Position numbers and translations under genes: made by a program
Source of the DNA: Escherichia coli phage AZ21
Length of the DNA: 64,000 bases
Sequence record: LC788708.1
Strand: one strand, 5' to 3'
Shown: positions 468 through 48,461 of the stretch, one piece after another
Numbering within the stretch: position 1 is the stretch's first letter
How the letters are laid out: the number at the start of each line of letters is the position of its first letter
The notes under the pieces: generated by a model
What the model was told of the DNA's origin: nothing
Database searches by the model: none
Seen by the model: only the letters and a program-made list of their open reading frames with translations

Positions 468-468
468 T

Positions 469-9499: not shown

Positions 9500-9552
9500 T
9501 AGACCAAATTTAAACAAATTCAAATCTCAAACTTCATATAAGGAAGCAAATA

Positions 9553-10574: not shown

Positions 10575-10603
10575 TTGCTAATTTACTAAGTTATCTGTAT
10601 AAT
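10575..10603 (+). promoter_or_regulatory. sigma70 promoter (T5 early type)
   Basis: TTGCTA-17-TATAAT then AAATTGATGAAACGAGG leader. Confidence 0.65.
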
Positions 10604-10633
10604 ATATTTTTAAATTGATGAAACGAGGCTATT

Positions 10634-10951
10634 ATGACTTTTCATATTTTGATTGATGATGTGCGTAATCTTCACGGAATGGACATTATCATTCGAACCC
10701 CAGAAGCCGCTGTAGAGTTTCTGAATAAAACTGATACCACAGGCCACTTCGTTTATATGGATAATGACTTGGCTGTAGATGGTATGGAAGGTTATCAAAT
10801 TCTTCGTTTACTCTTAGAATTTGGGCAGAGACCAAAGAAAGTGGTACTAGTAACCTCAAACCCAGTAGCTAAGCAAAATATGCGTAATGATTTGCTTGAC
10901 TTAGGGTATAAAGAAAATCCCAATCGTGTTGAATATGATTGGCAGGAGTAA
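10634..10951 (+). CDS. CheY-like receiver-domain protein (stand-alone)
   Basis: ILIDDV acidic pocket, YMDNDLAVDGMEG (Asp + MDG-like), VVLVTSN (conserved Thr/Ser) in receiver-domain order; 105 aa. Confidence 0.4.
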   Translation: MTFHILIDDVRNLHGMDIIIRTPEAAVEFLNKTDTTGHFVYMDNDLAVDGMEGYQILRLLLEFGQRPKKVVLVTSNPVAKQNMRNDLLDLGYKENPNRVEYDWQE

Positions 10952-32279: not shown

Positions 32280-32884
32280 TGACTTTTAATACACAACAAT
32301 CTATTCAAGTAGTGCCAGATCATGAACTGAACACATGGGATTATAGCTTTAAAGATTTAACTGCTACTATACAATTTAAATCTATGAAGCTAACATTTGC
32401 ACACACTGATCTTAGAGCCTGTAAAGATCTTGAGGATAAGCTCGAAGATGCTCGTAAGATTTTTGGCAAGGCTCGCATCCCGGCTGATAATCTAATTAAC
32501 GCATTAATCGATGTAGGATACAAACTCGTGAAGACTGAGGTGAACCGCCCTAGTACTCCAGTGACTGTTAGAGATCCGTGGCAGCCAGGGACAATCTCAA
32601 TGCTAAATAAATCATCGGATATACACAATGTTCCATGCGGTGGTGTGGTAAGTAGTACGCAGTCATACAAGTTTGGTGAAGATTACGGCCCTTCTGTGCA
32701 GTTGAAACATACTCAAGAAGCTTTTGAATCTGATATGCGAAGCGTAGCACCTGTGGATGCTGGAGTTTCTAGGAGTTCTGTTTGTACTATTCATTTTAAT
32801 AATCCTAGTAAACATGGAAGTTTAGAGGATGCTATCCTTGAAGCGTTGGGAGCTGCTATTAATGAAGATAAAAGAGGTAGTTAA
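32279..32884 (+). CDS. hypothetical protein
   Basis: 201 aa. Confidence 0.4.
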   Translation: MTFNTQQSIQVVPDHELNTWDYSFKDLTATIQFKSMKLTFAHTDLRACKDLEDKLEDARKIFGKARIPADNLINALIDVGYKLVKTEVNRPSTPVTVRDPWQPGTISMLNKSSDIHNVPCGGVVSSTQSYKFGEDYGPSVQLKHTQEAFESDMRSVAPVDAGVSRSSVCTIHFNNPSKHGSLEDAILEALGAAINEDKRGS

Positions 32885-33774
32885 TGGGATTTTATAGTAA
32901 TAGAAAACCAAAAGGTGTAACTGGTAAATTCGCAGTTGAAGAAAGACCTTTTCCACCGGTCGATGTAGAGAAACTACGTGAACTTCTAGAAATGCTAGAA
33001 GGTTGCCATGAACGTTGTTATTCTGAACTCTCTTTAAATGAGAAACGTGTTGTTGAGATGTTCTGTATTCGTTCAGCTAGAACAGCTAAAGGTACTTCTC
33101 CAAAAGATGAAGTAAAAGAGTACAGAGTTCTAGTGATGCATGCTTGGGCACAACGTTTTGCAGTTCATTCGCTTCAGGAATGGTTTAATCTTCCAGCCTA
33201 TAAAGATTTTCATGTTTACGAAGATGAGGTTATGAATTATAATGAGTTGTATGGTTTGTCCTTCAAAAAGACAGGCTCACCGATGCATGATGCACTCAAT
33301 TCATTCCCTGATCATTACCTTCCAGTTCGTGAATATAGAGATCGTGAAGGAAATAAACCCTGCTTCACTATTTGGAATAAGTCTAAGACGATATCTGATC
33401 TAGATAATTATTGGTTTCGCACAAAAGAAGGATTCCTAGGAACAGAACCTTTACCTAAGGATCTCAAACCTATCCTTCCGCCTGCGAAACCTAAACATGA
33501 AGTAACGATTGCTATTAATAGAATAATTCTAGGAGCAGATGATCTTACTAAACAAATCGCCGCAGTTATCGCAGTTCTGTTTGACGGTACAAATTCTTCT
33601 GCACGTTATGAGAAGCTAACGGATAACAAATTGCAGATACCTAACGAGTTGTATGAGAGTTCGTGCAAGATCTATGATAACTTTAGTAAAGTAGATTACC
33701 CCGTGAGATCCATTAAAGAACTCATGGAGTATGCGGAGATGGGGATGAAAGGAAATCTCATGTTCGATGAATAA
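32884..33774 (+). CDS. hypothetical protein
   Basis: 296 aa; last early-type gene before repeat region. Confidence 0.45.
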   Translation: MGFYSNRKPKGVTGKFAVEERPFPPVDVEKLRELLEMLEGCHERCYSELSLNEKRVVEMFCIRSARTAKGTSPKDEVKEYRVLVMHAWAQRFAVHSLQEWFNLPAYKDFHVYEDEVMNYNELYGLSFKKTGSPMHDALNSFPDHYLPVREYRDREGNKPCFTIWNKSKTISDLDNYWFRTKEGFLGTEPLPKDLKPILPPAKPKHEVTIAINRIILGADDLTKQIAAVIAVLFDGTNSSARYEKLTDNKLQIPNELYESSCKIYDNFSKVDYPVRSIKELMEYAEMGMKGNLMFDE

Positions 33775-33781
33775 ACTCTAC

Positions 33782-33810
33782 TTGACGTTATGATTTCTGC
33801 ATGTTATAAT
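33782..33810 (+). promoter_or_regulatory. sigma70 promoter pointing into the gene-free repeat region
   Basis: TTGACG-17-TATAAT; no convincing ORF downstream. Confidence 0.5.
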
Positions 33811-34138
33811 AACTCTATGAAATAACATAGAATAAAGAGATCCACCCGGATACGGATGGTGGATGGGAAACTTCTATTTCCCCCGTAGCTTGTCGGAGGG
33901 CTAGGGAAATCTTAAGAAGTTTTGTACCATCTCACGCAATTCGTATCCCAGGGGTGGAGCATCTCTTCCAATCTTTGGGGATCTTATACTTAAATTAAAG
34001 GTAAAACTTTTGGTCACATAATTTACATTCAAGATGATACACTGGTTGCCGCCATTCTTCCTAGGATGGCACAACACTTTCTTCTAGACTCCTAAGTTTC
34101 TAGGAATACTAACTCTAGAGTTTACACTAAACTTTGAA

Positions 34139-34876
34139 TCGGATTCGCACATGCTCTAGGGCAGTTTTTCATCTACTATAAATATCCTAGGCCGGTTTTC
34201 CTATACAGGGCGGTTATGGGGAGGGCGGTTATTTCTAGACAATAAAATTTACTCTTGTCAGTCCAGAAATTACTGTCGGATTTGCACATTGTGTTTCTAG
34301 AAATTTATGGTCGGATTTGCACAATTGCCTAAGTTTTTAGGAACATATAATCTCCTGAAAATGGCAGCATTATTTCGGGCCGAAGGCCCATGATTGCCTG
34401 AGTTTTTTTAGAGACACAGAAATTTTCACTTGTCAAGCTATTTTGCCCCATTTTGCTAATAAAATTTTACTTTATCTCCCCTAATCTCAAATTAACCCAA
34501 ATCTTCTCAACTCTTCTCCAAAATCCCCGCAAATCAGGTGCTCCGCACCAAACATGCGCCCCTCCCGTAGTTCCCCCAAGTTTCTCTCGATCTCTCAACT
34601 TCTCCCCAAACTCATACAATCACACACCCTCCAATCGAAGTCACAAAAATCTTGTCGGATTCGCACAAATAAACCCATGTCGGATTTGCACATATTCTAG
34701 TTAATTCCACAGGATTGATGCGCAGCATCGGATTGCTGGAGTTTTTGGGAGAATTCATTGTCGGATTCGCACACTATAAAAATTTTTCGGGTCGGATTTG
34801 CACACTACCAAAAATTGTCGGATTCGCACATACACGCCCACGCGTAATCCATGGGGGCAAATGTCGGATTTGCACA
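34139..34876 (+). repeat. array of nine direct copies of GTCGGATT(T/C)GCACA
   Basis: Copies at about 34139, 34275, 34310, 34654, 34679, 34760, 34791, 34817, 34863, irregular spacing. Confidence 0.85.
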
Positions 34877-34881
34877 AAAGC

Positions 34882-34899
34882 GCAGGGCAATTGCCCTGC
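34882..34899. repeat. perfect 18 bp palindrome GCAGGGCAATTGCCCTGC
   Basis: Read directly. Confidence 0.85.
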
Positions 34900-34904
34900 T
34901 TGCC

Positions 34905-35098
34905 TGAATGCGAATGATAATGAGAATCATTTGCATTTAAAAAGCGGAATGAGAATGATAATAATTCGCATTTAAGAATGGAAGTGAGAATTATTCAGGA
35001 AGTGAAACGATTCTCATTTAAAAAGTGAAACGATTCTCATTTAGAAAGTGAAACGCGAATGATAATGATTCGTATTTAAGAATGGAAGTGAGAAACAC
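34905..35098. repeat. GAATGATAATGA / AGTGAAACGATTCTCATTTA / CGCATTTAAGAATGGAAGTGAGAA repeat block
   Basis: AGTGAAACGATTCTCATTTA twice in tandem (35001, 35025); C(G/A)(C/T)ATTTAAGAATGGAAGTGAGAA twice (34968, 35071). Confidence 0.8.
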
Positions 35099-35109
35099 TA
35101 TTATTTAAG

Positions 35110-35118
35110 TTATCCACA
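35110..35118 (+). promoter_or_regulatory. DnaA-box consensus TTATCCACA
   Basis: Exact 9-mer; TTATCAACA variants at about 35122, 35171, 35183. Confidence 0.6.
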
Positions 35119-35199
35119 GACTTATCAACAGCACGATTTGACTTGACAGAATCCTAGCCATTTTGAGGCGTTATCAACAGACTTATCAACAGCTTATCC

Positions 35200-35219
35200 T
35201 ACTGTATAAATATACAGTA
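35200..35219. promoter_or_regulatory. LexA-box-like palindrome TACTGTATAAATATACAGTA
   Basis: CTGT-N8-ACAG with AT-rich core, close to the E. coli SOS-box consensus. Confidence 0.55.
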
Positions 35220-35413
35220 TTCCTATGCAGTGAATAATTCTAATATACAGCTAAAACGCTCTCAAACGCATTCTAACGCGTTTAATTTTGGTGGGGATAC
35301 TAAAACAAGGGCAAAATTGGAGGAGGCTTGAAAATTAGTTAGCTCGCTAATGATCACACACGGCGACACGTAACACCCTAACCATTAGCAGGCTAACCAT
35401 CGCGGGCGTGGTC

Positions 35414-35434
35414 AAATGAGAATGATTCTCATTT
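35414..35434. repeat. 21 bp palindrome AAATGAGAATGATTCTCATTT
   Basis: Same GAGAATGAT core as the upstream repeat block. Confidence 0.8.
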
Positions 35435-35585
35435 GTGGATTGGGGGCGCTTCCTGATAGTTGCGCCCCGTGATTATTATAGTAGGGGGCAACCGTTACGC
35501 TTTGCCCACTCCCGCCACTCATCTTGGTGCCTAGACTTGCGACGGCGTACTAAAAACCGCTTGTACCAGTGATTAAACCATCGTT

Positions 35586-35789
35586 TCATAAATCCTCCTC
35601 CGGTAGTCGATGCGTGATCTTTTCCTCCTCCCCATAGGAATCCACCAAATACTGATAATAACCATCGTGATCATAAATCACTTTATCATATTCCCCACGC
35701 TCGACCGCTTGCCGATTTTCCAACGTATCAGGCACAAAGAAAGTATCAACGGTAACAGTAGTTTTAGTTACAACAATTTTATCACTCAT
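35586..35789 (-). CDS. hypothetical pre-early protein
   Basis: 67 aa acidic; last gene of minus-strand block. Confidence 0.4.
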   Translation of the reverse strand: MSDKIVVTKTTVTVDTFFVPDTLENRQAVERGEYDKVIYDHDGYYQYLVDSYGEEEKITHRLPEEDL

Positions 35790-35915
35790 AATGCCATCGC
35801 CCCTAGAATGAGAATGATTATCAATATCATTGTGAAGCCATTACCAAATCGTAAACGCTGGGAATGTTTCCCAGCGGTATTATTAGACTTATGGCTTTGT
35901 GTTTTTCGCCACCAG

Positions 35916-36116
35916 CTATTCACGGTAGACGCTCCATCCGTCTAGCTTCCATTCTTCCCCCTTGCGAATATTGAAAAACCAATCATTAAAATTGTAACCA
36001 TCTTCTGACATGATCACGCCGTTTTCTTTCATGTACAAAAATTCATCACTAGTAAAATATTGATTACTAACTTTAAAACCTTGTTTCATTTTTTCTAGTG
36101 CTTCATCTTTAGTCAT
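35916..36116 (-). CDS. hypothetical pre-early protein
   Basis: 66 aa; start overlaps upstream stop. Confidence 0.4.
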   Translation of the reverse strand: MTKDEALEKMKQGFKVSNQYFTSDEFLYMKENGVIMSEDGYNFNDWFFNIRKGEEWKLDGWSVYRE

Positions 36117-36457
36117 TGCGCCACCTTTCGAAACGCTGTTTCAATACTATCCGCAGTGGATTGAATATATGCGCCTTTGAGTATCAGCCGCTCGGTGCAT
36201 ATCTTGCGAAAAATATTAATAAAATCGTCCTCATTTTCTGCGATTAATGCCTCACCCATAACCTGAACGTCGCAAGATGCAAAGGTCAAAAATTGAAACG
36301 CTAGTTCACGGGCAACGACCGCATTGATTTTATAATGCGCCTTGCCTTCATAGATATTAATAACGCCCTTATAAGCTGGCGAAAGCTGATTTAAGTAGTT
36401 TGCTAATAATGCCGGACGGCAATTAGCAACAAAACGATTGCCCTCATAAATAACCAT
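36113..36457 (-). CDS. hypothetical pre-early protein
   Basis: 114 aa. Confidence 0.4.
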   Translation of the reverse strand: MVIYEGNRFVANCRPALLANYLNQLSPAYKGVINIYEGKAHYKINAVVARELAFQFLTFASCDVQVMGEALIAENEDDFINIFRKICTERLILKGAYIQSTADSIETAFRKVAQ

Positions 36458-36580
36458 TTGATAGTCTCCCGATTAGATAGCCAGATAATAACATAAAGAT
36501 CCCCAATAAAAGAGGATCATTCTTAAATAAGGTGGCGGTAAAACCGCCAACCATTGCAAGGAGAATAACAATAATGCTTT

Positions 36581-36793
36581 TCATAGTACCCCACGAAACG
36601 CAGCGTAAAAGGTGGCAAAGTGTTTAACTGTTTCAGCAATCACGTTGCCGCGCTTATCAAATTTCTTTTCTGTAACACGAAAGGCATTTTTATTACGTGC
36701 TACATATTCGATTTTACAATCTTCCCGCTCGAACGTGTTAACATCCACCAGCTTAAAGCCTTTCGAACGTGCAAGAGAAACGTTGCGGATCAT
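36581..36793 (-). CDS. hypothetical pre-early basic protein
   Basis: 70 aa. Confidence 0.35.
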   Translation of the reverse strand: MIRNVSLARSKGFKLVDVNTFEREDCKIEYVARNKNAFRVTEKKFDKRGNVIAETVKHFATFYAAFRGVL

Positions 36794-36795
36794 TT

Positions 36796-36978
36796 TTATT
36801 CCCCTTTACTAGTCATGCAGCCCAGCAGATAAGAAAATACAGCGATGCCAGCACCAATAGTAACCATTGGTTTTATATTTACTAAACCGCAATAGGAATC
36901 CTGAATACCATAAGCGGTGGCGAAAAGAGTCAAAATAGCGCCCAAGATACCCGCTAAAATAGCTCGAAAAATAACCAT
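36796..36978 (-). CDS. hypothetical small membrane protein
   Basis: 60 aa, two hydrophobic helices. Confidence 0.35.
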   Translation of the reverse strand: MVIFRAILAGILGAILTLFATAYGIQDSYCGLVNIKPMVTIGAGIAVFSYLLGCMTSKGE

Positions 36979-37027
36979 TTGTAATACTCCTCTAGTTAGT
37001 GGGGCGAAAGTAACGCCCCGTTATTAA

Positions 37028-37258
37028 TTACATTAAAATAATTTTTGCCGCTTGTTTTTTGGTACAGTGTTCCGCTTTCAGGGTGTCCAGCAAAAAGCCC
37101 GCCGTTTGCTGATCGATTTTATCGGCATTATATAGTTCTTGGATGGTGTTATAAGTTTTAGCAATGCCGTATTCTTGTACCATTTCTTGAATAATCCAGC
37201 GATTTGATACCCAGCCTTTACCAGTGAAAAGAGCGTCAGAAGAAGAGTAAGCAACCAT
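37028..37258 (-). CDS. hypothetical pre-early protein
   Basis: RBS GGAGG then ATG on minus strand; track ORF trimmed. Confidence 0.4.
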   Translation of the reverse strand: MVAYSSSDALFTGKGWVSNRWIIQEMVQEYGIAKTYNTIQELYNADKIDQQTAGFLLDTLKAEHCTKKQAAKIILM

Positions 37259-37364
37259 TTTAAGCCTCCAAATTTTTGGGAAAATTTTCAACCGTCCTCA
37301 AACGGTGTAAAGGCATTATAACAAAAAAGGCCGCCATAAAAGGCGACCTTTACAAAACTTTACA

Positions 37365-37859
37365 TTAAACTACTTGTAAGGATTCAATATTGAAACATCG
37401 TTTCAGTTCGTCATGCAAAACGGCATATTCATCCCATCGGGTACTATCAGGAATATAAACAAGCTGTTTTAATCGGTTTGCATATATTACCGCTTTGTTA
37501 TCAATTATCTCGACGCCACCATATTTAATAATTAATTTCATGACGGAATTAATAGGATCGCCGCCGTTTACATATGCGCCGGATTTACTTAATTGATAAT
37601 GATAAAGGCTTGCATATACGTTTTCATTTTCATACCATTCGCCAGTCTCTTCGTCTTCATAGCCATCGCTACCAAAACGAGAAGCATTATCAACAGCCAT
37701 TTCATGAGCAAAAGCGTCCAGATCCGTACCAGCAGGAACAAAATATTCCTCGGTATTCCCTTCCCCGCAATAGCCAGTATGACAATCGACTAAAATGATC
37801 ATATCATGTTTAGCCTTGCTCACTTCCCCTAGCGAGAAGCCGTATTTTTCTTCTAACAT
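37365..37859 (-). CDS. hypothetical pre-early acidic protein
   Basis: RBS AGGAGA then ATG on minus strand; 164 aa. Confidence 0.45.
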   Translation of the reverse strand: MLEEKYGFSLGEVSKAKHDMIILVDCHTGYCGEGNTEEYFVPAGTDLDAFAHEMAVDNASRFGSDGYEDEETGEWYENENVYASLYHYQLSKSGAYVNGGDPINSVMKLIIKYGGVEIIDNKAVIYANRLKQLVYIPDSTRWDEYAVLHDELKRCFNIESLQVV

Positions 37860-37923
37860 AATTAGTCTCCTATTAATTAACAAGGAAATAGTAAAGCGGG
37901 GAAATAATCCCCGCTAGATATTA

Positions 37924-38157
37924 TTACTCGTTTTCGGTGTTAGTGGTAAAAGTAGAGATATCGATACCTTTTACCATTTCATCGATCATCTCAGCGATGT
38001 TAAAACTTTGCACCATTTCTAACATTGCCGCTTCCATAGCCGCCCCTGCTACCGCTTTCGCTTTCTGATTAGTCGGGGCGTACTGGTCAACCGCTACACT
38101 CAGCAGGTTAGCGATCACTACACGACCAATCGGCGTATCAATATAGCCTTTGATCAT
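37924..38157 (-). CDS. hypothetical pre-early protein
   Basis: 77 aa; start overlaps upstream gene end by 20 nt. Confidence 0.4.
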   Translation of the reverse strand: MIKGYIDTPIGRVVIANLLSVAVDQYAPTNQKAKAVAGAAMEAAMLEMVQSFNIAEMIDEMVKGIDISTFTTNTENE

Positions 38158-38929
38158 AAACGGTGCTTTTTTTAGCCGCTACTTTCGTGATTTGAGTTAG
38201 TGCAATTTTACCAGCTTCCAGTTTTGCAGCGTTTACAACAGCGGATTTATTAGCGGCAACGATATTAGCGATCTTGGTCATGGTATTTTTTCCTTTGTTT
38301 TCAGTAGTTTGAGTATTAACGCTTTGAGTGTTAGAGCTTACAACCTGTTTTTCAATATTGTCAACTGGTTTTAGTGTAAATCCAGCATTTGCAACGTTTG
38401 ATTCATTCCCATACTCTAAATAATCACTAGGGATCAACATGTTGCCACTAGCGCGTTCAAAACATAACACGCCAGTTGTAGAAATTACATTACTATCAGC
38501 ACTTTTGTAATTAGCTGATAGTTCACGCCAAATGCTAGTTAATAACGATCCGACACTATCAGTCCTGATATTACTTACTTTTGTTGCTGTTACTTGCTCT
38601 TTTTCTTGCACGTTATATAATCGCGCAATGTAACCACTATTAGATTCACTATAACCAACAATGATAAAATCAATATCTCTTCCACGTTGATTGCGGAAAA
38701 TGTGATAATCACGGTTGAAAATTACTAGCGCCCTTTTCTGGTCTAGTAATTGTGTGAAATCTTCAACTGAATAATGAGTACCCTCATCGTCTAAAATTCT
38801 ATCATGAATCTTTTCGATAATAGTAGCGGTATGCTGTACGCTTGCCGCGCTACTACCCTCTAACAGATTGCGCAAACTGCCTTTAATAATAGTGGCGTTT
38901 GCTGGTACTGCAATTCTTACAGTAGACAT
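38138..38929 (-). CDS. hypothetical pre-early protein (first gene of minus-strand block)
   Basis: 263 aa; RBS GGGAGA then ATG on minus strand. Confidence 0.5.
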   Translation of the reverse strand: MSTVRIAVPANATIIKGSLRNLLEGSSAASVQHTATIIEKIHDRILDDEGTHYSVEDFTQLLDQKRALVIFNRDYHIFRNQRGRDIDFIIVGYSESNSGYIARLYNVQEKEQVTATKVSNIRTDSVGSLLTSIWRELSANYKSADSNVISTTGVLCFERASGNMLIPSDYLEYGNESNVANAGFTLKPVDNIEKQVVSSNTQSVNTQTTENKGKNTMTKIANIVAANKSAVVNAAKLEAGKIALTQITKVAAKKSTVYDQRLY

Positions 38930-39195
38930 TTTATTTTGTCTCCCTCGTTAATCGGTGAGTGAATGATAAGGGTAATTTTCTAGCATAGGCAAATATTATT
39001 TTACTTTTTTATTTTCCTTGCCTAGCGTCTAATTTTATGCTAACCGCGCAGCGGTGCAATAAAGAGCAAACCACGGCGAAGCCACCAGCCCGACGCATTG
39101 AGGCTTTACTTTAATATTACCTTACAGCGTTTAGCTCGTTAGAATGCGTTTTGGGCCACTTAAAATTGATTGCAGTTGTTAACACTACCTTTCTA

Positions 39196-39215
39196 CCCTG
39201 TATATTTATACAGTG
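39196..39215. promoter_or_regulatory. LexA-box-like palindrome CTGTATATTTATACAG
   Basis: Exact reverse complement of the 35202-35217 core; lies upstream of the minus-strand block. Confidence 0.55.
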
Positions 39216-39224
39216 GAATAACCT

Positions 39225-39233
39225 GTGGATAAG
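39225..39233 (-). promoter_or_regulatory. DnaA-box consensus (TGTGGATAA on + strand)
   Basis: Exact reverse complement of TTATCCACA; second copy at about 39298-39306. Confidence 0.6.
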
Positions 39234-39554
39234 TCTGTGCAAAAGTCCTTATATCACCGCCTATCGTGTCAAGTTATTTTGTGCTGTGGAAAACATTGTG
39301 GATAACTTAAATGATAGTGCTTCTCACTTAGGCTAATGATTTCTTATAGTTATTATTTCTCATTAATTTATAAGTATATTATATATTATCAAATAGTTAG
39401 TTGGCTAATGAGATTTTCCGTGATTAATAGTCTGCTAATAATTCAGGTCGTTACAATCCACCAGCATGATTATCATTCTAGCAATTATTAGTCTGCTATC
39501 TTTCCGATACATACTAACAAATAAAAGTCAATTAATTTATTTCATAAAATAAGT

Positions 39555-39591
39555 AGTTATCCACTGGAAAATAAAAGTCAAGTGGATAACT
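39555..39591. repeat. perfect 11 bp inverted repeat AGTTATCCACT-N15-AGTGGATAACT
   Basis: Each arm contains a DnaA-box variant TTATCCACT. Confidence 0.8.
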
Positions 39592-39978
39592 AGGAAAATT
39601 TCATTTTTGCTTTTGGGGATAAGTTATCAACAAGGCTAGAATGCGCCTAAAACGCTCCAGAACGCGATGAAGTTTTTAGCCACCCCATCATAAGGGGATA
39701 GGCCGTTTATCGCTGCCACGAGCTTTTTAGATTTTGTCAAGTAGGGGAAAGCAAATATAAATGAAAAAATTACTTGCCTATTTGCTTTATTTTGTGGTAT
39801 TCGCGCCCGTTTCTTTTAATTTTAGGCCGTCGCCGGACGTGGTGCGGTGAATTTTGTCTTTACGTTTCTTTACAAAAATAAGGTTGCGCCATTTTCGGGA
39901 ATCCCCTATTATTTATCACGTAGGGCGGCAATGACGAACTACACGGCGGGAAGTTTACCGCCACGCTCTTTAAAAATT

Positions 39979-40002
39979 GGGTACATCTTAAAGCCTATCG
40001 GC
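39979..40002. repeat. left arm of 24 bp inverted repeat (GGGTACATCTTAAAGCCTATCGGC)
   Basis: 23/24 match to the reverse complement of 40247-40270. Confidence 0.85.
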
Positions 40003-40034
40003 GGTAAACTTATTTATTATAAGGAATCGACGAT

Positions 40035-40247
40035 ATGAAACAAACTTTATTGATCACTGGCAAGCCTATTAAGGCACTAGATAGCAAAACAAAAAATTTG
40101 TTGACAGTAGCGCAAAGATCGGTAAAATACCGATTCACGCAGTACAAGAAAGACCGCCAGCAAGGTTTAGAAATGATCTGGCGAAACATTATGATTGACT
40201 TGAAAGAAAATCATAAAAAACTGCAAAAAAATTATTTGACAACCTAG
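40035..40247 (+). CDS. hypothetical basic pre-early protein bracketed by the 24 bp inverted repeat
   Basis: 70 aa; stop codon TAG lies in the right repeat arm. Confidence 0.4.
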   Translation: MKQTLLITGKPIKALDSKTKNLLTVAQRSVKYRFTQYKKDRQQGLEMIWRNIMIDLKENHKKLQKNYLTT

Positions 40248-40270
40248 CCGATAGGTTTTAAGATGTACCC
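40247..40270. repeat. right arm of 24 bp inverted repeat (GCCGATAGGTTTTAAGATGTACCC)
   Basis: See left arm. Confidence 0.85.
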
Positions 40271-40391
40271 AGTTCGATAAGAGCGATAACTTGATAAAAT
40301 TTGACGGTCGGTGCTTACCATAATGCGCCCCGCCCCCTAACGGGATATAGCGGCCTACGTGGAGTTCTTTAAATTGATTATAGCGGCGAGA

Positions 40392-40445
40392 GGATTGTTA
40401 CTTATTACCTGCTAGTATTTTCTAGTAGGTAATAAGTAACAATCC
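40392..40445 (+). other. long hairpin, 24 bp stem (23/24) with 6 nt loop
   Basis: GGATTGTTACTTATTACCTGCTAG-TATTTT-CTAGTAGGTAATAAGTAACAATCC, just upstream of the next RBS. Confidence 0.8.
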
Positions 40446-40468
40446 ATCAAATAACTGGAGTTTATATT

Positions 40469-40720
40469 ATGCAAAACGTTATTACCGCGCCTAAAATTGG
40501 TCAATCCGTCTTTATTCCTTTCGTTACTAAAACGGATGAATTAACCGGAAAGGCCGAACGTATTAAAGGTGCGGCGCTTATGCCGTTCGATACAATCGAC
40601 GCGGTATATGCTGAAAATGAACGCAGTAACAACGGCAAGCCCGTTTTTAGCGTTCGCGTTAAATCCGGCGATGTTGTAAAGGTTGTTCAACGCAACGAAA
40701 AATGGGAAGCTGTGTTGTAA
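40469..40720 (+). CDS. hypothetical pre-early protein
   Basis: RBS CTGGAG then ATG; 83 aa. Confidence 0.45.
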   Translation: MQNVITAPKIGQSVFIPFVTKTDELTGKAERIKGAALMPFDTIDAVYAENERSNNGKPVFSVRVKSGDVVKVVQRNEKWEAVL

Positions 40721-40818
40721 TTTAGTGTTAACTTTATATCCCCCTTATTTCAGGGGGATATAACGATTAACATTAAGTTAATCTAATCCCTTAAATTAAA
40801 CTAATAGGAGTTTTTACC

Positions 40819-41226
40819 ATGACTAACGCAAAAACCGCAAAATTCGCATGGAATGAAGAAAACACTCAGAAAGCTGTTACCATGTACCAGCAGTTAATCA
40901 ACGAAAACGGTTTAGATTTTGCAAATAGCGACGGCCTGAAAGAGATTGCAAAAGCAGTAGGCGCGGCCTCCCCCGTATCCGTTCGGTCAAAATTGACCAG
41001 TGCAAAAGCCTATCAAAAAAGCGATAAGCCGCGTAAAGTTGGCGGCGGTAGCTCTGTGCGTAAAGCTCACTATGTGCGAGTAATTGCAAAACACGCTATC
41101 GATTCCGGTATTATCAAAGACGCCGATGATCTGGCAAGCCTTGAAAGTGCTAAACTGGAAACGCTGGACGCGGTGGCGCAACTGTTAGGCGTTGCCGATG
41201 AAGTAAAACAAGCCGTAGGTGAATAA
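40819..41226 (+). CDS. hypothetical pre-early protein, possible A2 homolog
   Basis: 135 aa; RBS TAGGAG; sits on the inner side of the A1-like gene with one small ORF between; name assigned by position and size only. Confidence 0.4.
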   Translation: MTNAKTAKFAWNEENTQKAVTMYQQLINENGLDFANSDGLKEIAKAVGAASPVSVRSKLTSAKAYQKSDKPRKVGGGSSVRKAHYVRVIAKHAIDSGIIKDADDLASLESAKLETLDAVAQLLGVADEVKQAVGE

Positions 41227-41316
41227 TAGTTATACCTTGCCCCCTTCTAGTGAGGGGGCACTAATATAACTGTTTAGCGATAGTTATTTTCTTCCCTTAA
41301 ATCAGGAGTTTTAAAA

Positions 41317-41514
41317 ATGGTTTTCTTCCCTACTGAATCTTTGATTCTAGGCTTGTTTATTATGGCGGCCTCATTATTGTTCGCTTATTTTCAGAATGAT
41401 TTAGATTCGTATTATTTTAAACGTAAATCTAAATTAGCAAAACGTTTGGGCTTGCTTTGTTTTATCGCTGCCGTTGCCTGTGGTGTTAGTTCGAGTCTAG
41501 TACCATTAAATTAA
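41317..41514 (+). CDS. small membrane protein
   Basis: Two TM helices; RBS CAGGAG. Confidence 0.35.
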   Translation: MVFFPTESLILGLFIMAASLLFAYFQNDLDSYYFKRKSKLAKRLGLLCFIAAVACGVSSSLVPLN

Positions 41515-41601
41515 TGTTGCAAATTATAACGCCTATTATTCGAGGCGTTATATTTGGCAATATTGCCATTATTAACCTAATCCCTTTAATGGAGTTTTAT
41601 T

Positions 41602-43272
41602 ATGATTATTTCCGCAGAAAAACAAACCGTTATCCTGAAAATGGCCGCTGATTTCAATTTCTACGGTAAACGCCTGCGCGCCACTAAACTGGAGGTCTGC
41701 GACGATATTTCAAAAGCGGTCTACGATACAACGAAACACTCCACCGCTATCTGCGACTGGCTGGAAGCAAATAAACCAGCGAAACCAAAAGCGGCAAAAG
41801 TAGCAAAAGCCATTAAAAACGGTGAGCGCCCCGAAGCGGCTGGGATTGTTTCTAGTACCGTGGAGCAGTGGGAAGTAAAACAAGGTAAACGCTTTATTAT
41901 TACATCGATTCAGAATAATACTTTCCCGCATAAAAACTTTTTAGCCTCACTGGAGCAATTTGCTAAATATATCGGGGCTGATTTGCTCGTTTCTAAGTAT
42001 ATTTATAATAAAAACGGTTTTCAAAATGGGGAAGGTGCTGACGGAATCAAATATGATTCCGCGTTTGATAAATATATTTGCAGCAAAAACGTGTTTTTGA
42101 ATAACCGCCGCTTTGCTTTCATGGCTGAAATTAATGTTTTGCCTACCGCAGATTATCCGCTTTCTGGATTCGCAGAAACTGCAACGGCTTTAAATATTGA
42201 AGGTCTGGCAATTGGTCACGCTAAAATTACCGCTGAAAGCGTACCAGCTTTAAAAGGTGAAGTAGTGCGCCGTATGTACTCAACCGGAACGGCAACGCTC
42301 AAAAACTACATTCAGCAGAAAGCAGGACAAAAGGCCGAGGCGCTGCATAACTTCGGTGCGCTTATTGTTGAGTTCGACGAGGACGGGGAATTTTTTGTAC
42401 GCCAGCTTGAAACGATGGACGAAAGCGGGGTATTTTATGATCTGAATGTGTGTGCTACTCCTGCCGGATGCTATGAAACATCGGGGCATGTTTTAGGCTT
42501 GCAGTATGGCGATATTCACGCCGAAAAATTAGATGAGGAGTGCGCCGCCGCGTCATGGGGGCATGGTGATACTTATGGGCTAGTAGATATTCTTAAACCA
42601 AAATATCAGTTTGTGCATGACGTGCATGATTTTACATCGCGCAATCATCATAACCGCGCATCGGGTGTATTCCTAGCAAAACAGTACGCCGCCGGACGTG
42701 ATAAGGTTATTGATGATCTTATCGATACGGGGCGCGTGCTGGAATCAATGGAGCGTGATTTTTCTCAAACAATCATTGTTGAATCGAATCACGATTTGGC
42801 GTTATCCCGTTGGCTTGATGATCGTAATGCTAACATCAAAGACGATCCAGCAAACGCAGAACTGTATCACCGCCTGAATGCTGCAATTTACGAGGCAATC
42901 GGTGAACATGACGAAACGTTCAACGTGCTAGATTATGCGCTGCGCAAGGTTGCAGGTTGTGAGTTTAACGCCATTTTCCTGACCACTGACCAATCTTTCA
43001 AGATTGCAGGCATTGAATGCGGCGTACACGGTCACAACGGCATTAATGGCAGTCGTGGCAATCCCAAACAATTTAAGAAATTGGGCAAGTTAAACACTGG
43101 TCATACTCATACGGCAAGCATTTACGGCGGGGTATATACCGCTGGCGTAGCTGGTAGTCTGGATATGGGTTACAACGTTGGCGCGTCAAGCTGGACGCAA
43201 ACTCATTTAATTACCTATGCAAACGGTCAGCGCACTTTGATTGACTTTAAGAACGGTAAATTTTTTGCGTAA
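41602..43272 (+). CDS. A1: A1-like pre-early protein, calcineurin-like metallophosphoesterase/nuclease
   Basis: 556 aa, the length I recall for T5 A1; metallophosphoesterase motifs YGDIHAE, HDVHDF, ESNHD, GVHGHNG, GHTHT; RBS AATGGAG. Confidence 0.75.
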   Translation: MIISAEKQTVILKMAADFNFYGKRLRATKLEVCDDISKAVYDTTKHSTAICDWLEANKPAKPKAAKVAKAIKNGERPEAAGIVSSTVEQWEVKQGKRFIITSIQNNTFPHKNFLASLEQFAKYIGADLLVSKYIYNKNGFQNGEGADGIKYDSAFDKYICSKNVFLNNRRFAFMAEINVLPTADYPLSGFAETATALNIEGLAIGHAKITAESVPALKGEVVRRMYSTGTATLKNYIQQKAGQKAEALHNFGALIVEFDEDGEFFVRQLETMDESGVFYDLNVCATPAGCYETSGHVLGLQYGDIHAEKLDEECAAASWGHGDTYGLVDILKPKYQFVHDVHDFTSRNHHNRASGVFLAKQYAAGRDKVIDDLIDTGRVLESMERDFSQTIIVESNHDLALSRWLDDRNANIKDDPANAELYHRLNAAIYEAIGEHDETFNVLDYALRKVAGCEFNAIFLTTDQSFKIAGIECGVHGHNGINGSRGNPKQFKKLGKLNTGHTHTASIYGGVYTAGVAGSLDMGYNVGASSWTQTHLITYANGQRTLIDFKNGKFFA

Positions 43273-43328
43273 TTAAATTATTTCCCTAGCGGCTTGAAAT
43301 ACAGCCGCTATTACAGGAGCTAAATTAA

Positions 43329-43607
43329 ATGGCTATTAAAATTAATCTTCCCAATATTAAAAACACCGCTGATATATGGTCGATTGATACTATATTGCGT
43401 GGCACTGTATACCGTAATTTAAAAGATAATAATTGTTATATTTATCAAAATGAATTAAACGGCCATATTTACATAATCGAGTCCGATGGTTTTTGTTCTT
43501 TTGAGACTGATTATGAAGCGCAAGATCATATACAGGCAAATGATATTCCTGACGTATGGAAAGAAACAAACCTTGCTTTTGTTGTAAGTCTTGAAGCTAA
43601 CAAATAA
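43329..43607 (+). CDS. hypothetical pre-early protein
   Basis: RBS CAGGAG; 92 aa. Confidence 0.4.
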   Translation: MAIKINLPNIKNTADIWSIDTILRGTVYRNLKDNNCYIYQNELNGHIYIIESDGFCSFETDYEAQDHIQANDIPDVWKETNLAFVVSLEANK

Positions 43608-43645
43608 ATTAAATATCTTATTAAATTAATTGGAGTTTTACAAAT

Positions 43646-44038
43646 ATGAAAAAGCAAAATATTCCATTCGATCGCGCTCAGTCTTCTATTGTTCTGGTTT
43701 ATTCTAATGGTGAGCGTTACCACGTCGAGGCGGGGCACGTTATTGATGAATTATTAGATTTCAATGACGCTTTACAGGTTACTACCTTTGCCTACACGCA
43801 AGGCCGCGCAAGTAGTTACATTAAGGCCGCAGGCGTTTATGTTGACACGGTGAAACAAGAAACGATTATCATCGACGCAGTAAAATCCGGTCTAGCCTTT
43901 GCAGTTGTCGCGCCTTGCCCCTCTTGTCTTGATGATCAGCTAACGAGTGCGAAAGTATACACCTGCGCGGGCATTCGTTCCCATGTATCAGGAGAGGATA
44001 TTAGTTTTATCGCTGATGCGTTGGCTTATGGTCTTTAA
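43646..44038 (+). CDS. hypothetical pre-early protein
   Basis: RBS TTGGAG; 130 aa. Confidence 0.45.
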   Translation: MKKQNIPFDRAQSSIVLVYSNGERYHVEAGHVIDELLDFNDALQVTTFAYTQGRASSYIKAAGVYVDTVKQETIIIDAVKSGLAFAVVAPCPSCLDDQLTSAKVYTCAGIRSHVSGEDISFIADALAYGL

Positions 44039-44118
44039 TAGTTGATTTATTATTGCCCGCTGATAGATAGCGGGCAATGCTGGATAAACTACATCCCTTT
44101 AATGGAGAACGTAACAAA

Positions 44119-44853
44119 ATGAATCAAGTTAAAACGAATATTTCCCGTAACTTCCCGCATATTTCCCGCGTCATGATCTGGGATCTTGATGGCACTATCG
44201 TTAATTCATTCCATCGTGTAGCGCCTTGCTTTGATAGTGAGGGTAATCTAGATTTAAATAAGTATAAGAATGAGGCTTGCAAACATGATTTAATAATGCA
44301 GGATACTTTATTGCCTTTGGTGGAATATATGCGCCAATGCATGAATGACGCAAATACTTTAAACATTATTTGTACCGCTCGATTAATGAGCAAATCGGAT
44401 TATTATTATTTGCGCAAACAAGGCTTGCGAGGGCGTGGGGATAGCAATATCCGCGTGTTTTCCCGCGACACGCTGCATAAATATTTTGAAGCTGATAAGG
44501 TTAGCGAGATATACCACAGTAAAGACGCAGTTTATAAATCGTATTACTTTGAATTATTTAAACAGCTATATCCGAACGCTGATTTCACAATGATTGATGA
44601 TCATAAAGGTGTATTATCAGCGGCGGCGTCATACGGATTTAAAACGCTAGACGCGCAAGCCGTTAACGATATTCTATCAATCGGCGTGGCATTGATAGGC
44701 GGAACCTTTATTGATGAATCTCTCGATGATGATAATGATTATCAGTTCCTAGCCGATCGATTGAAATTATGTTGGGAAAGTATGACCGAAGAAGAACGCG
44801 CAGAATATAGTTGCAGCCCGCAACAATATATTGAGAAATTAAAAGTTGCGTAA
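44119..44853 (+). CDS. dmp: HAD-family 5'-deoxyribonucleotidase (Dmp-like)
   Basis: HAD motif I VMIWDLDGT near N-terminus; 244 aa from the RBS-supported ATG; same CCCTTTAATGGAG leader as the A1-like gene. Confidence 0.7.
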   Translation: MNQVKTNISRNFPHISRVMIWDLDGTIVNSFHRVAPCFDSEGNLDLNKYKNEACKHDLIMQDTLLPLVEYMRQCMNDANTLNIICTARLMSKSDYYYLRKQGLRGRGDSNIRVFSRDTLHKYFEADKVSEIYHSKDAVYKSYYFELFKQLYPNADFTMIDDHKGVLSAAASYGFKTLDAQAVNDILSIGVALIGGTFIDESLDDDNDYQFLADRLKLCWESMTEEERAEYSCSPQQYIEKLKVA

Positions 44854-45017
44854 TAATTAAAGTTGAAATAGTTTCATCCTGCAATTAAAATGGTTGCGGG
44901 ATGAAACAATTACCCTGCTAATAGTAACGGGGGTGGCGGTTAGCAGACTAAGTATTCTCCCCCAACCCACTGGACACACCTCCATGTGTAATCCTATGAA
45001 ATTTGGCAAAAGTCAAA

Positions 45018-45263
45018 TTAGCGCATAGAAGGGTCATCAAACCTGTGCTCTGGTCTGAACTCACGGAATCTCTTCCACGACGCCCGAGATCCATCAGACC
45101 ACTCCCGCTCAAACTCCGCACGTTTCTCGTCAAACTTCCGCTCCCTTTCCGCAATCTCTCGCGTCACCCCCGCGATATATTCCCGATGCTTGTTAATTGC
45201 CGCAGTTGTCCCGAAAACTCCCGCGAGTATCCCGATAATAAAAGCAATTACAATACTAAACAT
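45018..45263 (-). CDS. small membrane protein
   Basis: N-terminal TM helix; RBS GAGAGGG on minus strand. Confidence 0.35.
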   Translation of the reverse strand: MFSIVIAFIIGILAGVFGTTAAINKHREYIAGVTREIAERERKFDEKRAEFEREWSDGSRASWKRFREFRPEHRFDDPSMR

Positions 45264-45450
45264 CTAATTCCCTCTCAATTTGCAGAATACGGGTACTATC
45301 ACAACGTTGCAGTAGTGCTAGCTTTTCTAGAGTAACTTGTTGTTGTTTTACCTGAGCTTCTAGAGTTTTTAGGCGGAGATACACGATACGAGAGACAATG
45401 AGGATTACCCAGACTAATATTACCATTAGTGTAATTGCCGCTTCCATCAT
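45256..45450 (-). CDS. small membrane protein
   Basis: TM helix; RBS GGAGAAA on minus strand. Confidence 0.35.
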   Translation of the reverse strand: MMEAAITLMVILVWVILIVSRIVYLRLKTLEAQVKQQQVTLEKLALLQRCDSTRILQIERELDV

Positions 45451-45553
45451 TTACGTTTCTCCAATAATAAGGTTTCAATTCTAGCTAAATGATTATCTAA
45501 AATACATTGTCCAATAATCACAATCCCTAGTAGTGCAATAATTACCCATTCCA

Positions 45554-45745
45554 TTAAATCCACCCCGCCATAGCTGCTAACCAAAAACCTACGAAGATTA
45601 GGAATAATACAAAACCAAATCCGTAAATATTAATCCACGCTTCATATACTTCTCCGCGTCTGTTCTTTCTTTTATTTGACATATCTTTCATGCTCCAATA
45701 AATGTGGTATCTGGAATATTTTACAGTTTGTGCACAACCAACCAT
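45554..45745 (-). CDS. small membrane protein
   Basis: C-terminal TM helix; RBS AGGAAG on minus strand. Confidence 0.35.
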   Translation of the reverse strand: MVGCAQTVKYSRYHIYWSMKDMSNKRKNRRGEVYEAWINIYGFGFVLFLIFVGFWLAAMAGWI

Positions 45746-45858
45746 GCTTGTGACTTCCTAGAAGGACTTCTCATTTTCTTGCATAGTGGTTTCTGCCAAT
45801 ATACCATCCAAAAAATAAAAAATTTAGTTTACTTGGATGTCGTTTTGCTTTATACTAA

Positions 45859-46125
45859 TTACAGGTAGTTAGATTGCTCTAGTTTAAATTTACAATCACC
45901 GTATTTAAGATCAAACTGACTGAGATCCCACCACCCAAACTTAGTACGGAGCTGTACTACTGGGAAGCGATCTCCCTTAATACGAACTTTTTGAACTTTG
46001 AGGCCATAATGTTCTTCTCCTGCACCTCCAAAAGATTTTACAAATCCCGTACAAAATGGTTTGGGAGCAGGTGCACAACCAGATAACATAACTGCGGCAA
46101 CTAGTGCAATCACAAACTTTTTCAT
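45859..46125 (-). CDS. llp: lipoprotein, Llp-like receptor-blocking candidate
   Basis: Signal peptide with lipobox LSGC; divergent from and adjacent to the receptor-binding protein gene; own early-type promoter. Confidence 0.6.
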   Translation of the reverse strand: MKKFVIALVAAVMLSGCAPAPKPFCTGFVKSFGGAGEEHYGLKVQKVRIKGDRFPVVQLRTKFGWWDLSQFDLKYGDCKFKLEQSNYL

Positions 46126-46156
46126 ATTTATCTCTCCATTTCTAATTTATGAATCT

Positions 46157-46185
46157 ATTATAGCAAAATAGAGGGATGAAAGCAA
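46157..46185 (-). promoter_or_regulatory. sigma70 early-type promoter for llp-like gene (minus strand)
   Basis: On minus strand TTGCTT-17-TATAAT then AGATTCATAAATT and RBS GGAGAG. Confidence 0.65.
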
Positions 46186-46210
46186 ATACATTTTTATAAT
46201 AGGAGATTAT

Positions 46211-47968
46211 ATGGGTTTTTTCGCTGGTAAGTATAGCGATGGTAAGACCGTACTATCTTTAAATACTGAATCTGGTGGTGACATTAATCGTCACTATAGT
46301 CCAAATGCCAATAGTATTTTTCATAGTGATATGCCATTTGTCCTAGTTGATGGTACTTATGAGTCTGGGTTAGGTGATGCCGGTAATGGGTTTTTTGTAT
46401 GTCAGATGCCCTCTGACATAATAAATATTAAATCTAACGATCCTGGTAGAGTTATACTAACTGCTATTGAAATTAATGGTACTCACAGAGCTTTTCTTAA
46501 CGGTACTCAGAGTAAAGTAGGTCAAACTATAGCTGCCACTCAAGCAGATCCTTTTAGATCTTTTGCTAGTGTTTCCCAGACTAGTGGATTTGCATTTGGT
46601 AATAGCCTGGCATCTGGTACATATAACTATAATCCATCTATAGGGCATGAAGAATCTATTTCTAGAAATGGTACTGGTGGAACCACCCTACATAGTACGT
46701 ATCATGGTATAGTTAGGCCAGGTGCAGGAGCTCCAGTAGGGGTTACTGTTGCAGAAGCTTTTGCACAGTTGGGTTTTCCTACTAATAGTAGTACAGTACC
46801 TATAGATGGTAATAATCAATATTACTGGGACCCAGGATGGATGTCTCCTTTAGGATCAGCACACAGAGGGCACGATTGGTTTTATGTTTGTAACTCTAAC
46901 ATACGTGGGTATGGTGGGGTAAGACAAGGTCTTCCTGGTAGTGTAAATACTATGTATCATGATGGTGGCAACAGATTTGTTTGTAGGGGTTCTACAACTA
47001 ATTTAGCTAATCAATCTAGTGATTCTACAATACTACAAGATTGGTATAACATAACTCCTACTAAGGTTATTTGGTACGTCTTGAATTTAAGATATTCTGG
47101 CGGCAATATGAGTATCTCTGGTAATCCTTTTACTGGTTCAGATATTCTTATATCTCCTTCTAATTTCATAATTAAAGGGGTTAGTCTTCCCAATACTGGA
47201 TACAAGTTTATTAACCAGAACGCTTTCGGTAACTTAGGTTATAGACCAGATATGGAATATATTGGAAATAATGCAGCGTACACTGGGGCCTTCGGAGATA
47301 CTACTGCAAGGTGTGAACTTGTAGGTTCTAGTAATGGGGGTTTATGGTCTCCTGTGGACTATGGAGGGGCTAAGTCTCAAATTAGTATTTACAAATTCGG
47401 AGCTGGTAAGCAATGGTACGTAAACTCTAATGATAATACTATCGGTAATGAACACGGGGTTGTTTGGGGGCCTTCAGCAGTTCCACTACGACTTTTTAGC
47501 GGAAATGTTGGTAGTTCTTACATGGGGGATGATATTACTCCCAGCTATCCAGGAACTGGAGATAGATACGTTGGTTTATCAACTATTGGGCTAGGTATAC
47601 CGGGTGGCAATGCTACCGTAATTCTTACCACTGAAGTTATATCAGGTAATCTTAACTGCGCGGGTGTTCCCGCTAATACATGGAATAACGGTGTATTTCA
47701 GGTTCAAGGAAGAAGAGCATATAGTTATAGTAATGGGGATGCAATATTTCATCAGATTTTAACATTACCAGTAGGGTATTTAGTACCTTTTCATACTACA
47801 TCTGCTTTTAGATACACACCTAACAATGCCCTAAGTAGAAATAGTTTTATATACACTGCTAAAAATCTGGGGAATGGAAATGTAGAGCTAGGGGTAGTTA
47901 TGCACGTAAGTTTAGGTAGTGCAGTTTTCCTACCTAGATTAAGAGTAACAGTTCAACGCCTAACCTAA
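46211..47968 (+). CDS. receptor-binding tail protein (pb5/Oad-like)
   Basis: 585 aa, Gly/Asn/Ser/Thr/Tyr-rich, adjacent to divergent llp-like gene. Confidence 0.55.
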
Positions 47969-47978
47969 AGGAGGATAT

Positions 47979-48461
47979 ATGGCAAATGATGTATTAGTTC
48001 CCGATCTCATGTCTCCCGAAGGCATGGATGTTATTGAAGCCTATTTACAGTGCGGTAGTGATGTTCCTGCCGCCGCTCGTAGTCTTGGAATGTCCGAGAT
48101 TGCATTTCGTGATATAATGAATCGTGGGGAAGTTAAAAACTATCTCAACGATATCTTTATGGAAAGCGGCTTCCGTAATCGTGACCGCTTATTCGGAGTT
48201 CTTGATGAAGTTATCAAACGCAAGTTGGAAGAACTCGAAGAAACTGGCATGGGTTCTGACCAGGATATCATGGATATTCTCTGGAAGGCGCACAAGATGA
48301 AGATGGAAGAAATGAAAATGATGGTAGAACTGGAGAAAGTGAAGGCAGCAGCCCGTACTCCGGCTAACCAGACTAATATTCAGAATAATATTATTGCTGG
48401 AAGTGGTGACGAAAACTATATGAATCTTATTACCGCTCTAGCAGGAGGAGGTAAGAGATAA
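47979..48461 (+). CDS. terminase small subunit
   Basis: HTH-like [17 protein letters not shown]; directly upstream of and overlapping terminase large subunit. Confidence 0.5.

Follow-up and report, generated by a model that had tools for sequence, protein, structure and literature searches.

The window analysed here, a stretch of 64,000 nucleotides, contains at 34411-44976 what we regard, with a probability of about 0.93, as a terminal repeat of AZ23, a T5-like phage: a direct repeat of ~10.6 kb, collapsed into a single copy. The predicted repeat comprises 10,566 bp, reads on the minus strand (reverse to the T5 map), and is the segment onto which the repeats of T5 (1-10219), MM-1 (1-10407) and BF23 (1-9743) map end to end. 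We observe directly that 33780-46200 of the window is identical (100%) to 67692-80112 of the AZ23 record LC788707.1 (Escherichia coli phage, Tequintavirus, 104,075 bp), that the pre-early block occurs in only one place in this record, with the A1 gene likewise found there once, and that the block is collinear with T5 1-10219 plus flanks on either side, in reverse orientation. The left junction resembles the junction of left terminal repeat and early region in T5, the right junction that of late region and right terminal repeat. Both topologies, together with the reverse orientation, match the expectation for a collapsed terminal repeat. A first-pass annotation of the window had proposed such a repeat, reverse to T5, and the single copy, both junctions and the ends of related genomes support the proposal. 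The block to which it was assigned, 33780-46200, is wider than the repeat it contains, with 631 bp of unique sequence to the left of the repeat and 1,224 bp to its right.

The state of the source record is informative in itself. The first CDS of LC788707.1 is a partial tail-fibre gene, and an open frame containing SETNAK-type repeats occupies the final 580 bp and continues past the last base. Since the record ends within the tail-fibre gene, its termini are assembly breaks and not ends of virion DNA; a contig broken in this repetitive gene is therefore silent on the DNA ends. The record is labelled 'complete sequence', and every gene in it is annotated as 'hypothetical protein'. It is a permuted contig in which one repeat copy is probably missing and which is broken in the tail-fibre gene. 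The circular permutation suggested by the first-pass annotation holds only loosely, since the contig is linear and does not close into a circle. The sample originated from sewage. A literature search found no paper on AZ23 / KS_S14.

The genome ends of relatives were mapped onto the window by pairwise DNA alignment, and their positions are likewise directly observed. The inner end (injection-stop side) lies at window 34411, which corresponds to T5 10219, MM-1 10407 and the end of the BF23 record. The records of L6jm, MM-2 and TUMS_E3 also terminate here: in the database search their record ends fall on query position 632, and four records stop at exactly this position, which is window 34411. 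The outer end (dmp side), with the start (T)GTCCA..., is found at 44975/44976 in T5, T5 st0, MM-1, L6jm, TUMS_E3 and BF23. Its first bases vary among the relatives (T or G), hence homology fixes this end to approximately +/- 1 bp. The sequence at both predicted end positions is conserved in the window. The prediction uses six finished relatives, namely T5 (two records, T5 and T5 st0), BF23, MM-1, L6jm and TUMS_E3, whose ends are not all independent: some may have been placed by reference to T5, those of T5 itself are the annotation of its record, and only those of BF23 are known to have been measured, using PhageTerm (PMC10644984). MM-1 (vB_EcoS_MM-1, PV577657) has annotated left and right repeats of 10,407 bp and is ~93% identical over the block; BF23 (OR083247), like MM-1 a Tequintavirus relative, has PhageTerm-called repeats of 9,743 bp. 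Both end at the same bases and share the layout of receptor-binding protein and terminase with AZ23, but they carry both repeat copies at the ends of the sequence, whereas the AZ23 record has a single internal copy. Of the two regions in which the first-pass annotation had placed the DNA ends, 44.9-45.9 kb contains the predicted outer end, while 33.8-34.1 kb misses the inner end by ~0.3 kb.

The inner end is embedded in non-coding DNA, with no annotated CDS between 33775 and 35585. The outermost part (33775-34410) is unique sequence outside the repeat; its aligned counterparts are T5 10220-10935 and the part of MM-1 that follows 10407. Inside the repeat, 34481-35603 (minus strand) is homologous to the injection-stop region iss (T5 9140-10149) and lies within Repeat Region 3. 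This gene-free region with DnaA boxes had been described as injection-stop-like, and the T5 iss can be aligned to it base by base. The site of the major T5 nick (T5 9748/9749) corresponds to about window 34880. The DRD repeat GTGCRAATCCGAC is present in nine copies (0.06 expected), six of which are located in the iss region (34654-34875), together with AT-rich DRE-type repeats at 34894-35094. The three outermost copies (34138-34150, 34275-34287, 34310-34322) are outside the predicted repeat; the array, with all copies on the same strand, straddles the predicted inner end, which falls within the gap of 331 bp that separates the six copies from the three. Repeat Region 3 is known to extend ~270 bp into unique DNA (Davison, bioRxiv 10.1101/866236). 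The DRD repeats are also conserved in T5 and MM-1. There is a slim chance that the array serves as a recognition site which determines where, at the right end of T5-like genomes, the terminase cuts or the repeat is duplicated, an idea that goes beyond the first-pass annotation and is drawn only from the position and conservation of the copies.

An inverted repeat of 132 bp pairs the arm IRD'-spacer-IRC' at 35086-35217 with a partner arm at 39198-39329. The former holds four DnaA or near-DnaA boxes (35110-35191) as two pairs, 35110-35130 and 35171-35191, the two boxes of each pair lying 3 bp apart; the latter holds four boxes of the consensus TTWTNCACA (39224-39305), giving eight boxes in four pairs over both arms. 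With at most one mismatch, TTATCCACA occurs 31 times in the window compared to 19.2 +/- 3.9 expected, a number reached in none of 100 shuffles. The strict DnaA consensus shows no enrichment over the window as a whole (11 versus 8.5 expected), and the signal therefore resides in local clustering and conservation rather than in the overall count. A T5-type repeat is characterised by a large untranslated iss at its inner end, in which inverted repeats occur alongside paired DnaA boxes and DRD copies; the eight-box inverted-repeat layout and the DRD repeats have been described for 25 T5-like phages (Davison, bioRxiv 10.1101/866236), and AZ23 matches this description.

The coding part of the repeat consists of two gene sets that diverge from a central non-coding region (38930-40034) comprising Repeat Regions 1 and 2. 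Nine small pre-early ORFs, annotated as CDS on the minus strand (35586-38929), are transcribed towards the iss. These include a T5.011-like DUF7566 protein (38138-38929; Pfam DUF7566, E = 1e-84), which has 263 aa in AZ23 versus 336 aa in T5, as well as T5.014-like (36581-36793) and T5.015-like (36113-36457) proteins (PHROG 4227 and 4379). The plus strand encodes a T5.007 homologue (40469-40720; PHROG 3747, E = 7e-50) whose size and position are those of T5.007, one of four ORFs conserved in all T5-like repeats. It is followed by A2 (40819-41226, 135 aa; PHROG 1725), a DNA-binding protein required in second-step transfer with 98% identity to T5 A2, by A1 (41602-43272, 556 aa; PHROG 1745), a DNA transfer protein needed for host DNA degradation and second-step transfer with 96% identity to T5 A1, and by dmp (44119-44853, 244 aa), encoding a deoxynucleoside-5'-monophosphatase with 96% identity to T5 Dmp; dmp is the final gene of the repeat ahead of its outer end. 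The order dmp, A1, A2 at the outer end, with 96-98% identity to T5, is that of a T5-type repeat and bears out the earlier identification of A2-like, 556 aa A1-like and 244 aa Dmp-like genes; indeed, every pre-early hallmark listed for 33780-46200 is present. A promoter scan of the block gave 46 hits versus 35.9 +/- 6.6 in shuffles, which is not clearly above expectation, and no individual promoter is named; the annotated promoters of T5 fall in the aligned central region.

We note that the enzyme families previously assigned to A1 (metallophosphoesterase) and Dmp (HAD-type) are reflected in short motifs but not in profile searches. A1 has no significant Pfam, NCBIfam or PDB sequence match, and its alignment to T5 shows the metallophosphoesterase-typical motifs GDIH, SNHD, HGH and GHTH. 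One Klebsiella phage record names its A1 homologue 'metallophosphoesterase'. Dmp has no Pfam match at E <= 0.01, and neither NCBIfam nor PDB yielded a meaningful one; its alignment to T5 shows the DxDxT motif (DLDGT), and at 96% identity its sequence securely identifies it as an orthologue of the T5 5'-deoxynucleotidase. For A2, searches of Pfam, NCBIfam and PDB sequences returned no useful fold match.

The flanking genes agree with this arrangement. On the left, the first early-side gene in unique sequence near the inner end is a T5.018 homologue (32884-33774, plus strand; 44% identity to T5.018). On the right, the unique late-side sequence outside the repeat (44977-46200, minus strand) aligns with T5 and MM-1 just before their right terminal repeats and contains four small ORFs at positions matching T5.159-162, among them the T5.162 counterpart (45018-45263, 81 aa; PHROG 6447) and an llp-like lipoprotein (45859-46125) that carries the lipoprotein signal LPAM_1. 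The receptor-binding tail protein and the small and large terminase follow at 46211-49777 (plus strand) and match the MM-1 annotation in both size and order. The receptor-binding protein (585 aa) has 30% identity to T5 pb5, the large terminase 95% identity to its T5 counterpart. The inner end is thus located beside early genes and the outer end beside llp, receptor-binding protein and terminase, as is typical of T5 and as the first-pass annotation had recognized.

Compared with T5 as a whole (NC_005859, repeats of 10,219 bp), AZ23 has the same order of dmp, T5.002, T5.003, A1, T5.005, A2, T5.007, central non-coding region, T5.011-017 side and iss, and shares the iss repeats, the DnaA-box pairs, the DRD repeats and the terminal sequences; the genes that flank the repeat on either side are also those of T5. 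AZ23 differs in that T5 has two copies of the repeat, whereas the AZ23 record has one, reversed; in the hegG HNH endonuclease gene, which is present in T5 and absent from the central non-coding region of AZ23; in additional small ORFs towards the iss, which MM-1 has as well; and in a predicted repeat length of 10,566 bp.

Three other readings, a shifted repeat boundary, a genuinely internal module and a chimeric join, were considered and rejected. The repeat might exist in AZ23 with boundaries other than those predicted by homology, for example with an inner end at 33.8-34.1 kb or an outer end that reaches into the counterparts of T5.159-162. T5-like repeats do vary in length, from 8,081 bp (DT57C) to 12,854 bp (My1), and the non-coding repeat region runs ~270 bp past the end of the T5 repeat, such that the end cannot be read from sequence features alone. 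However, the variation in length arises from internal insertions and deletions, whereas both ends lie at the same homologous bases in the six finished relatives, including the two T5 records, and the surrounding sequence is kept in the window. We therefore consider shifted boundaries improbable.

Still less probable is that the internal, single-copy module reflects the true virion arrangement, with AZ23 having lost its terminal repeats or packaging its DNA by a headful, circularly permuted mechanism. Its sole support is that the deposited 'complete sequence' shows one internal copy, yet this record ends inside a gene and carries no information on DNA ends. The large terminase, as close to that of T5 as noted above, the terminal sequences and the architecture of the iss are all conserved, and first-step transfer needs the module at a DNA end; moreover, long terminal repeats are carried by T5, BF23 (PMC10644984) and the 25 phages compared by Davison (bioRxiv 10.1101/866236). 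The block as a chimeric misjoin, for example of a second T5-like phage from the sewage inserted between unrelated contigs, is hardly credible: the nature of the sample and an evidently imperfect contig would allow for it, but both junctions continue into the flanks exactly as in T5, MM-1 and BF23, in 80 other records at least 80% of the block is found in a single place, and the strand switch accounts for the only break in base composition.

A collapsed repeat would arise in the usual way. Reads of the two identical repeats would merge, such that one copy joins late genes to early genes, and the 104 kb contig would read through the joined genome ends and break inside the tail-fibre gene. The same general artefact is seen when short reads of phages with direct terminal repeats are assembled, with identical repeats merged and genome ends joined by the contig; nothing material distinguishes AZ23, except that its contig is additionally broken in the tail-fibre gene and not circularised. 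T7 and other phages that have direct terminal repeats show the same arrangement in their concatemers. Collapsed repeats are usually resolved with PhageTerm or coverage analysis. Two copies of A1 are found in at most 82 of 460 A1-bearing records, most of which have a single copy. Both the repeat architecture of T5-like phages and the assembly artefact have been described: in many GenBank records of T5-like phages dmp, A1 and A2 are misplaced, as assemblers mishandle the terminal repeats (Davison, bioRxiv 10.1101/866236).

By analogy to its relatives, the virion DNA of AZ23 is predicted to be linear, with a length of at least 114.6 kb and one repeat copy at each end, bounded at 34411 and 44976. 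Window 44976 would be the dmp end, which is predicted to enter the cell first, and window 34411 the other end. If the module functions as in T5, the first injection would deliver the repeat only, and transfer would pause in the repeat-rich iss at about 34.5-35.6 kb, as described in the T5 literature. Starting in the central non-coding region, at about 38.9-40.0 kb, host RNA polymerase would transcribe the two diverging pre-early gene sets, Dmp together with the T5.014-like and T5.015-like proteins would act on host nucleotides and host defences, and A1 and A2 would then permit transfer of the remaining genome. For users of the AZ23 record the consequence is practical: before it is used for genome length, gene counts, ends and packaging, or taxonomy based on whole-genome identity, the predicted repeat (record 68323-78888) should be restored and the sequence re-oriented to begin at the dmp end. 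A collapsed repeat is an already known and common artefact of T5-like records rather than new biology, and AZ23 adds nothing to the known biology of T5.

The region at 33780-46200, which the first-pass annotation had drawn as the pre-early (first-step-transfer) module (here: the block), matches the record of Escherichia coli phage AZ23 (LC788707.1; 104,075 bp; genus Tequintavirus; from sewage, Japan) over its full length with 100% identity (megablast). Record positions are converted into window positions by subtracting 33912. About 500 further T5-like records match the block at 80-95%, 80 of them spanning at least 80% of it in one place (megablast). All CDS of the region are labelled 'hypothetical protein' in the AZ23 record. 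The block is collinear with the terminal repeat of T5 (NC_005859, 1-10219) in reverse orientation, as had been proposed from the sequence alone. It constitutes a textbook T5-type terminal repeat.

The record holds one copy each of the whole block and of the A1 gene. In the phage collection A1 was matched in 542 places over 460 records, hence both copies are present in at most 82 records. The first CDS of LC788707.1 (record 1-1723) is annotated as partial and resembles a tail-fibre N-terminal domain, and the final 580 bp (103496-104075) are an open reading frame, rich in SETNAK-type repeats, that is still open at the record end. The break in the contig thus falls within a repetitive tail-fibre gene, and the true DNA ends must lie somewhere inside the contig. 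We note that the record, although titled 'complete sequence', is interrupted in this gene and may lack some sequence at that point. At the left junction of the block, the repeat passes into unique DNA of the early side, like the inner end of the T5 left repeat; at the right junction, unique DNA of the late side passes into the repeat, like the start of the T5 right repeat. The single copy, the T5-like junctions and the record ends inside the tail-fibre gene together support the suggested collapse of a terminal repeat: during assembly, the reads of two identical repeats would merge into one copy, linking late genes to early genes via that copy. We infer a two-fold coverage of the repeat and physical ends of AZ23 itself at its boundaries. 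The accompanying suggestion of a circularly permuted assembly holds with respect to permutation, but not to a closed circle, as the contig is linear with a break. Such artefacts are already known: many T5-like records in GenBank place dmp, A1 and A2 oddly because assemblers mishandle large terminal repeats (Davison, bioRxiv 10.1101/866236).

The position of the ends can be predicted from finished relatives. For the inner (injection-stop) end, the annotated ends of T5 (10219) and MM-1 (10407) share one alignment column, window 34411, onto which the BF23 genome likewise maps with its right end; matches to MM-1, MM-2, L6jm and TUMS_E3 terminate at query position 632 (window 34411), the exact end of those records (megablast). 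The outer (dmp) ends of T5, T5 st0, MM-1, L6jm, TUMS_E3 and BF23 start with (T)GTCCA and correspond to window 44976 or 44975. The BF23 ends were derived from reads using PhageTerm (PMC10644984), so that at least one independent measurement is among the relatives' records. The predicted terminal repeat of AZ23 is window 34411-44976 (record 68323-78888), 10,566 bp. The dmp end of the virion DNA is predicted as the reverse complement from window 44976, 5'-TGTCCAGTGG..., and the other end as the reverse complement up to window 34411, ...CTGTGTCTC-3'. With the repeat restored at both ends, virion DNA of 114,641 bp or more is expected, not counting the tail-fibre sequence that is missing; this is close to BF23 (114,544 bp) and MM-1 (118,039 bp). 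The inner end had been expected at 33.8-34.1 kb, whereas the relatives' ends put it at 34.41 kb. As drawn, the block extends past the repeat on both sides: to the left by 631 bp of non-coding unique DNA, and to the right by 1,224 bp that hold unique late-side genes.

The pre-early genes recognised in the first-pass annotation are present: Dmp (44119-44853) and A1 (41602-43272) are both 96% identical to T5, A2 (40819-41226) is 98% identical, and all three are of equal length to their counterparts. The orthology of A1 and Dmp is secure; the fold labels originally assigned to them, which derive from short motifs only, were not confirmed by profile and PDB sequence searches. T5.007-, T5.014- and T5.015-like ORFs were named by PHROG matches. 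A T5.011-like protein (38138-38929, 263 aa; Pfam DUF7566) covers profile positions 1-257 of 336 and is thus C-terminally shorter than that of T5 (336 aa). The left flank contains a T5.018 homologue, the right flank four small ORFs that are position counterparts of T5.159-162 (one an llp-like lipoprotein), followed by a 585 aa receptor-binding protein and both terminase subunits. Directly past the T5.018-homologue stop codon lies the best sigma-70-like match of the scanned region (33782-33810; TTGACG, 17 nt, TATAAT, upstream TG; 11/12), oriented in the direction of the repeat and reading into non-coding DNA. Its strand carries no gene for ~6 kb downstream, and it may be a chance match.

The gene-less stretch 33775-35585, previously described as injection-stop-like with DnaA boxes, does align with the injection stop signal of T5: T5 9140-10149 corresponds to window 34481-35603, and the major nick of T5 to window ~34880. 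It also contains AT-rich direct repeats. The 13-mer GTGCRAATCCGAC, the short direct repeat (DRD) of T5-like injection-stop regions, occurs in nine copies on one strand within 34138-34875, compared to 0.06 expected. Two pairs of DnaA-type boxes (35110-35191) are part of a 132 bp inverted repeat (35086-35217 and 39198-39329, 83% complementary) whose arms are ~4 kb apart inside the terminal repeat. Each arm carries two such pairs, with a 3 bp gap within and 61 bp between pairs, and the four boxes of arm 39198-39329 all follow the consensus TTWTNCACA. Further near-DnaA boxes are found at 39557-39632. The layout matches the eight DnaA boxes and nine DRD repeats described across 25 T5-like phages (Davison, bioRxiv 10.1101/866236), and the arms match the published IRD'-spacer-IRC' / IRC-spacer-IRD arrangement. 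Across the window, the strict consensus is not enriched (11 versus 8.5 expected), while boxes with up to one mismatch are (31 versus 19.2 +/- 3.9); the evidence is clustering and conservation.

Of the DRD copies, which flank the predicted inner end, six lie within the repeat and three beyond it, with the end itself in a 331 bp gap between the two groups. The repeat scan found no copies near the outer end (44976). Davison (2020; bioRxiv 10.1101/866236) gave these repeats no function; their placement makes it possible that the arrays help to set the packaging cut.

The differences between AZ23 and T5 are ordinary within-genus variation. AZ23 (~39400-39460) and MM-1 lack hegG (T5.010, ~0.5 kb), the HNH homing endonuclease gene that separates Repeat Regions 1 and 2 in T5; most T5-like phages lack it too. 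The pair formed by llp and the receptor-binding protein differs as well: the AZ23 receptor-binding protein (585 aa, within 45859-47968) is just 30% identical to T5 pb5 (640 aa), and the lipoprotein next to it (88 aa) shares ~30% identity with T5 Llp. The receptor of AZ23 is thus probably not FhuA. Judging from its near-identity to T5, we infer that the transfer mechanism described in the literature for T5 holds for AZ23. The dmp end would enter the cell first, with a pause in the injection-stop region after ~8% of the genome, and host RNA polymerase would express two diverging pre-early gene sets from the central non-coding region. A1 would be required for shut-off and for the degradation of host DNA, the released dNMPs would be dephosphorylated by Dmp, and second-step transfer would require A1 and A2 jointly.
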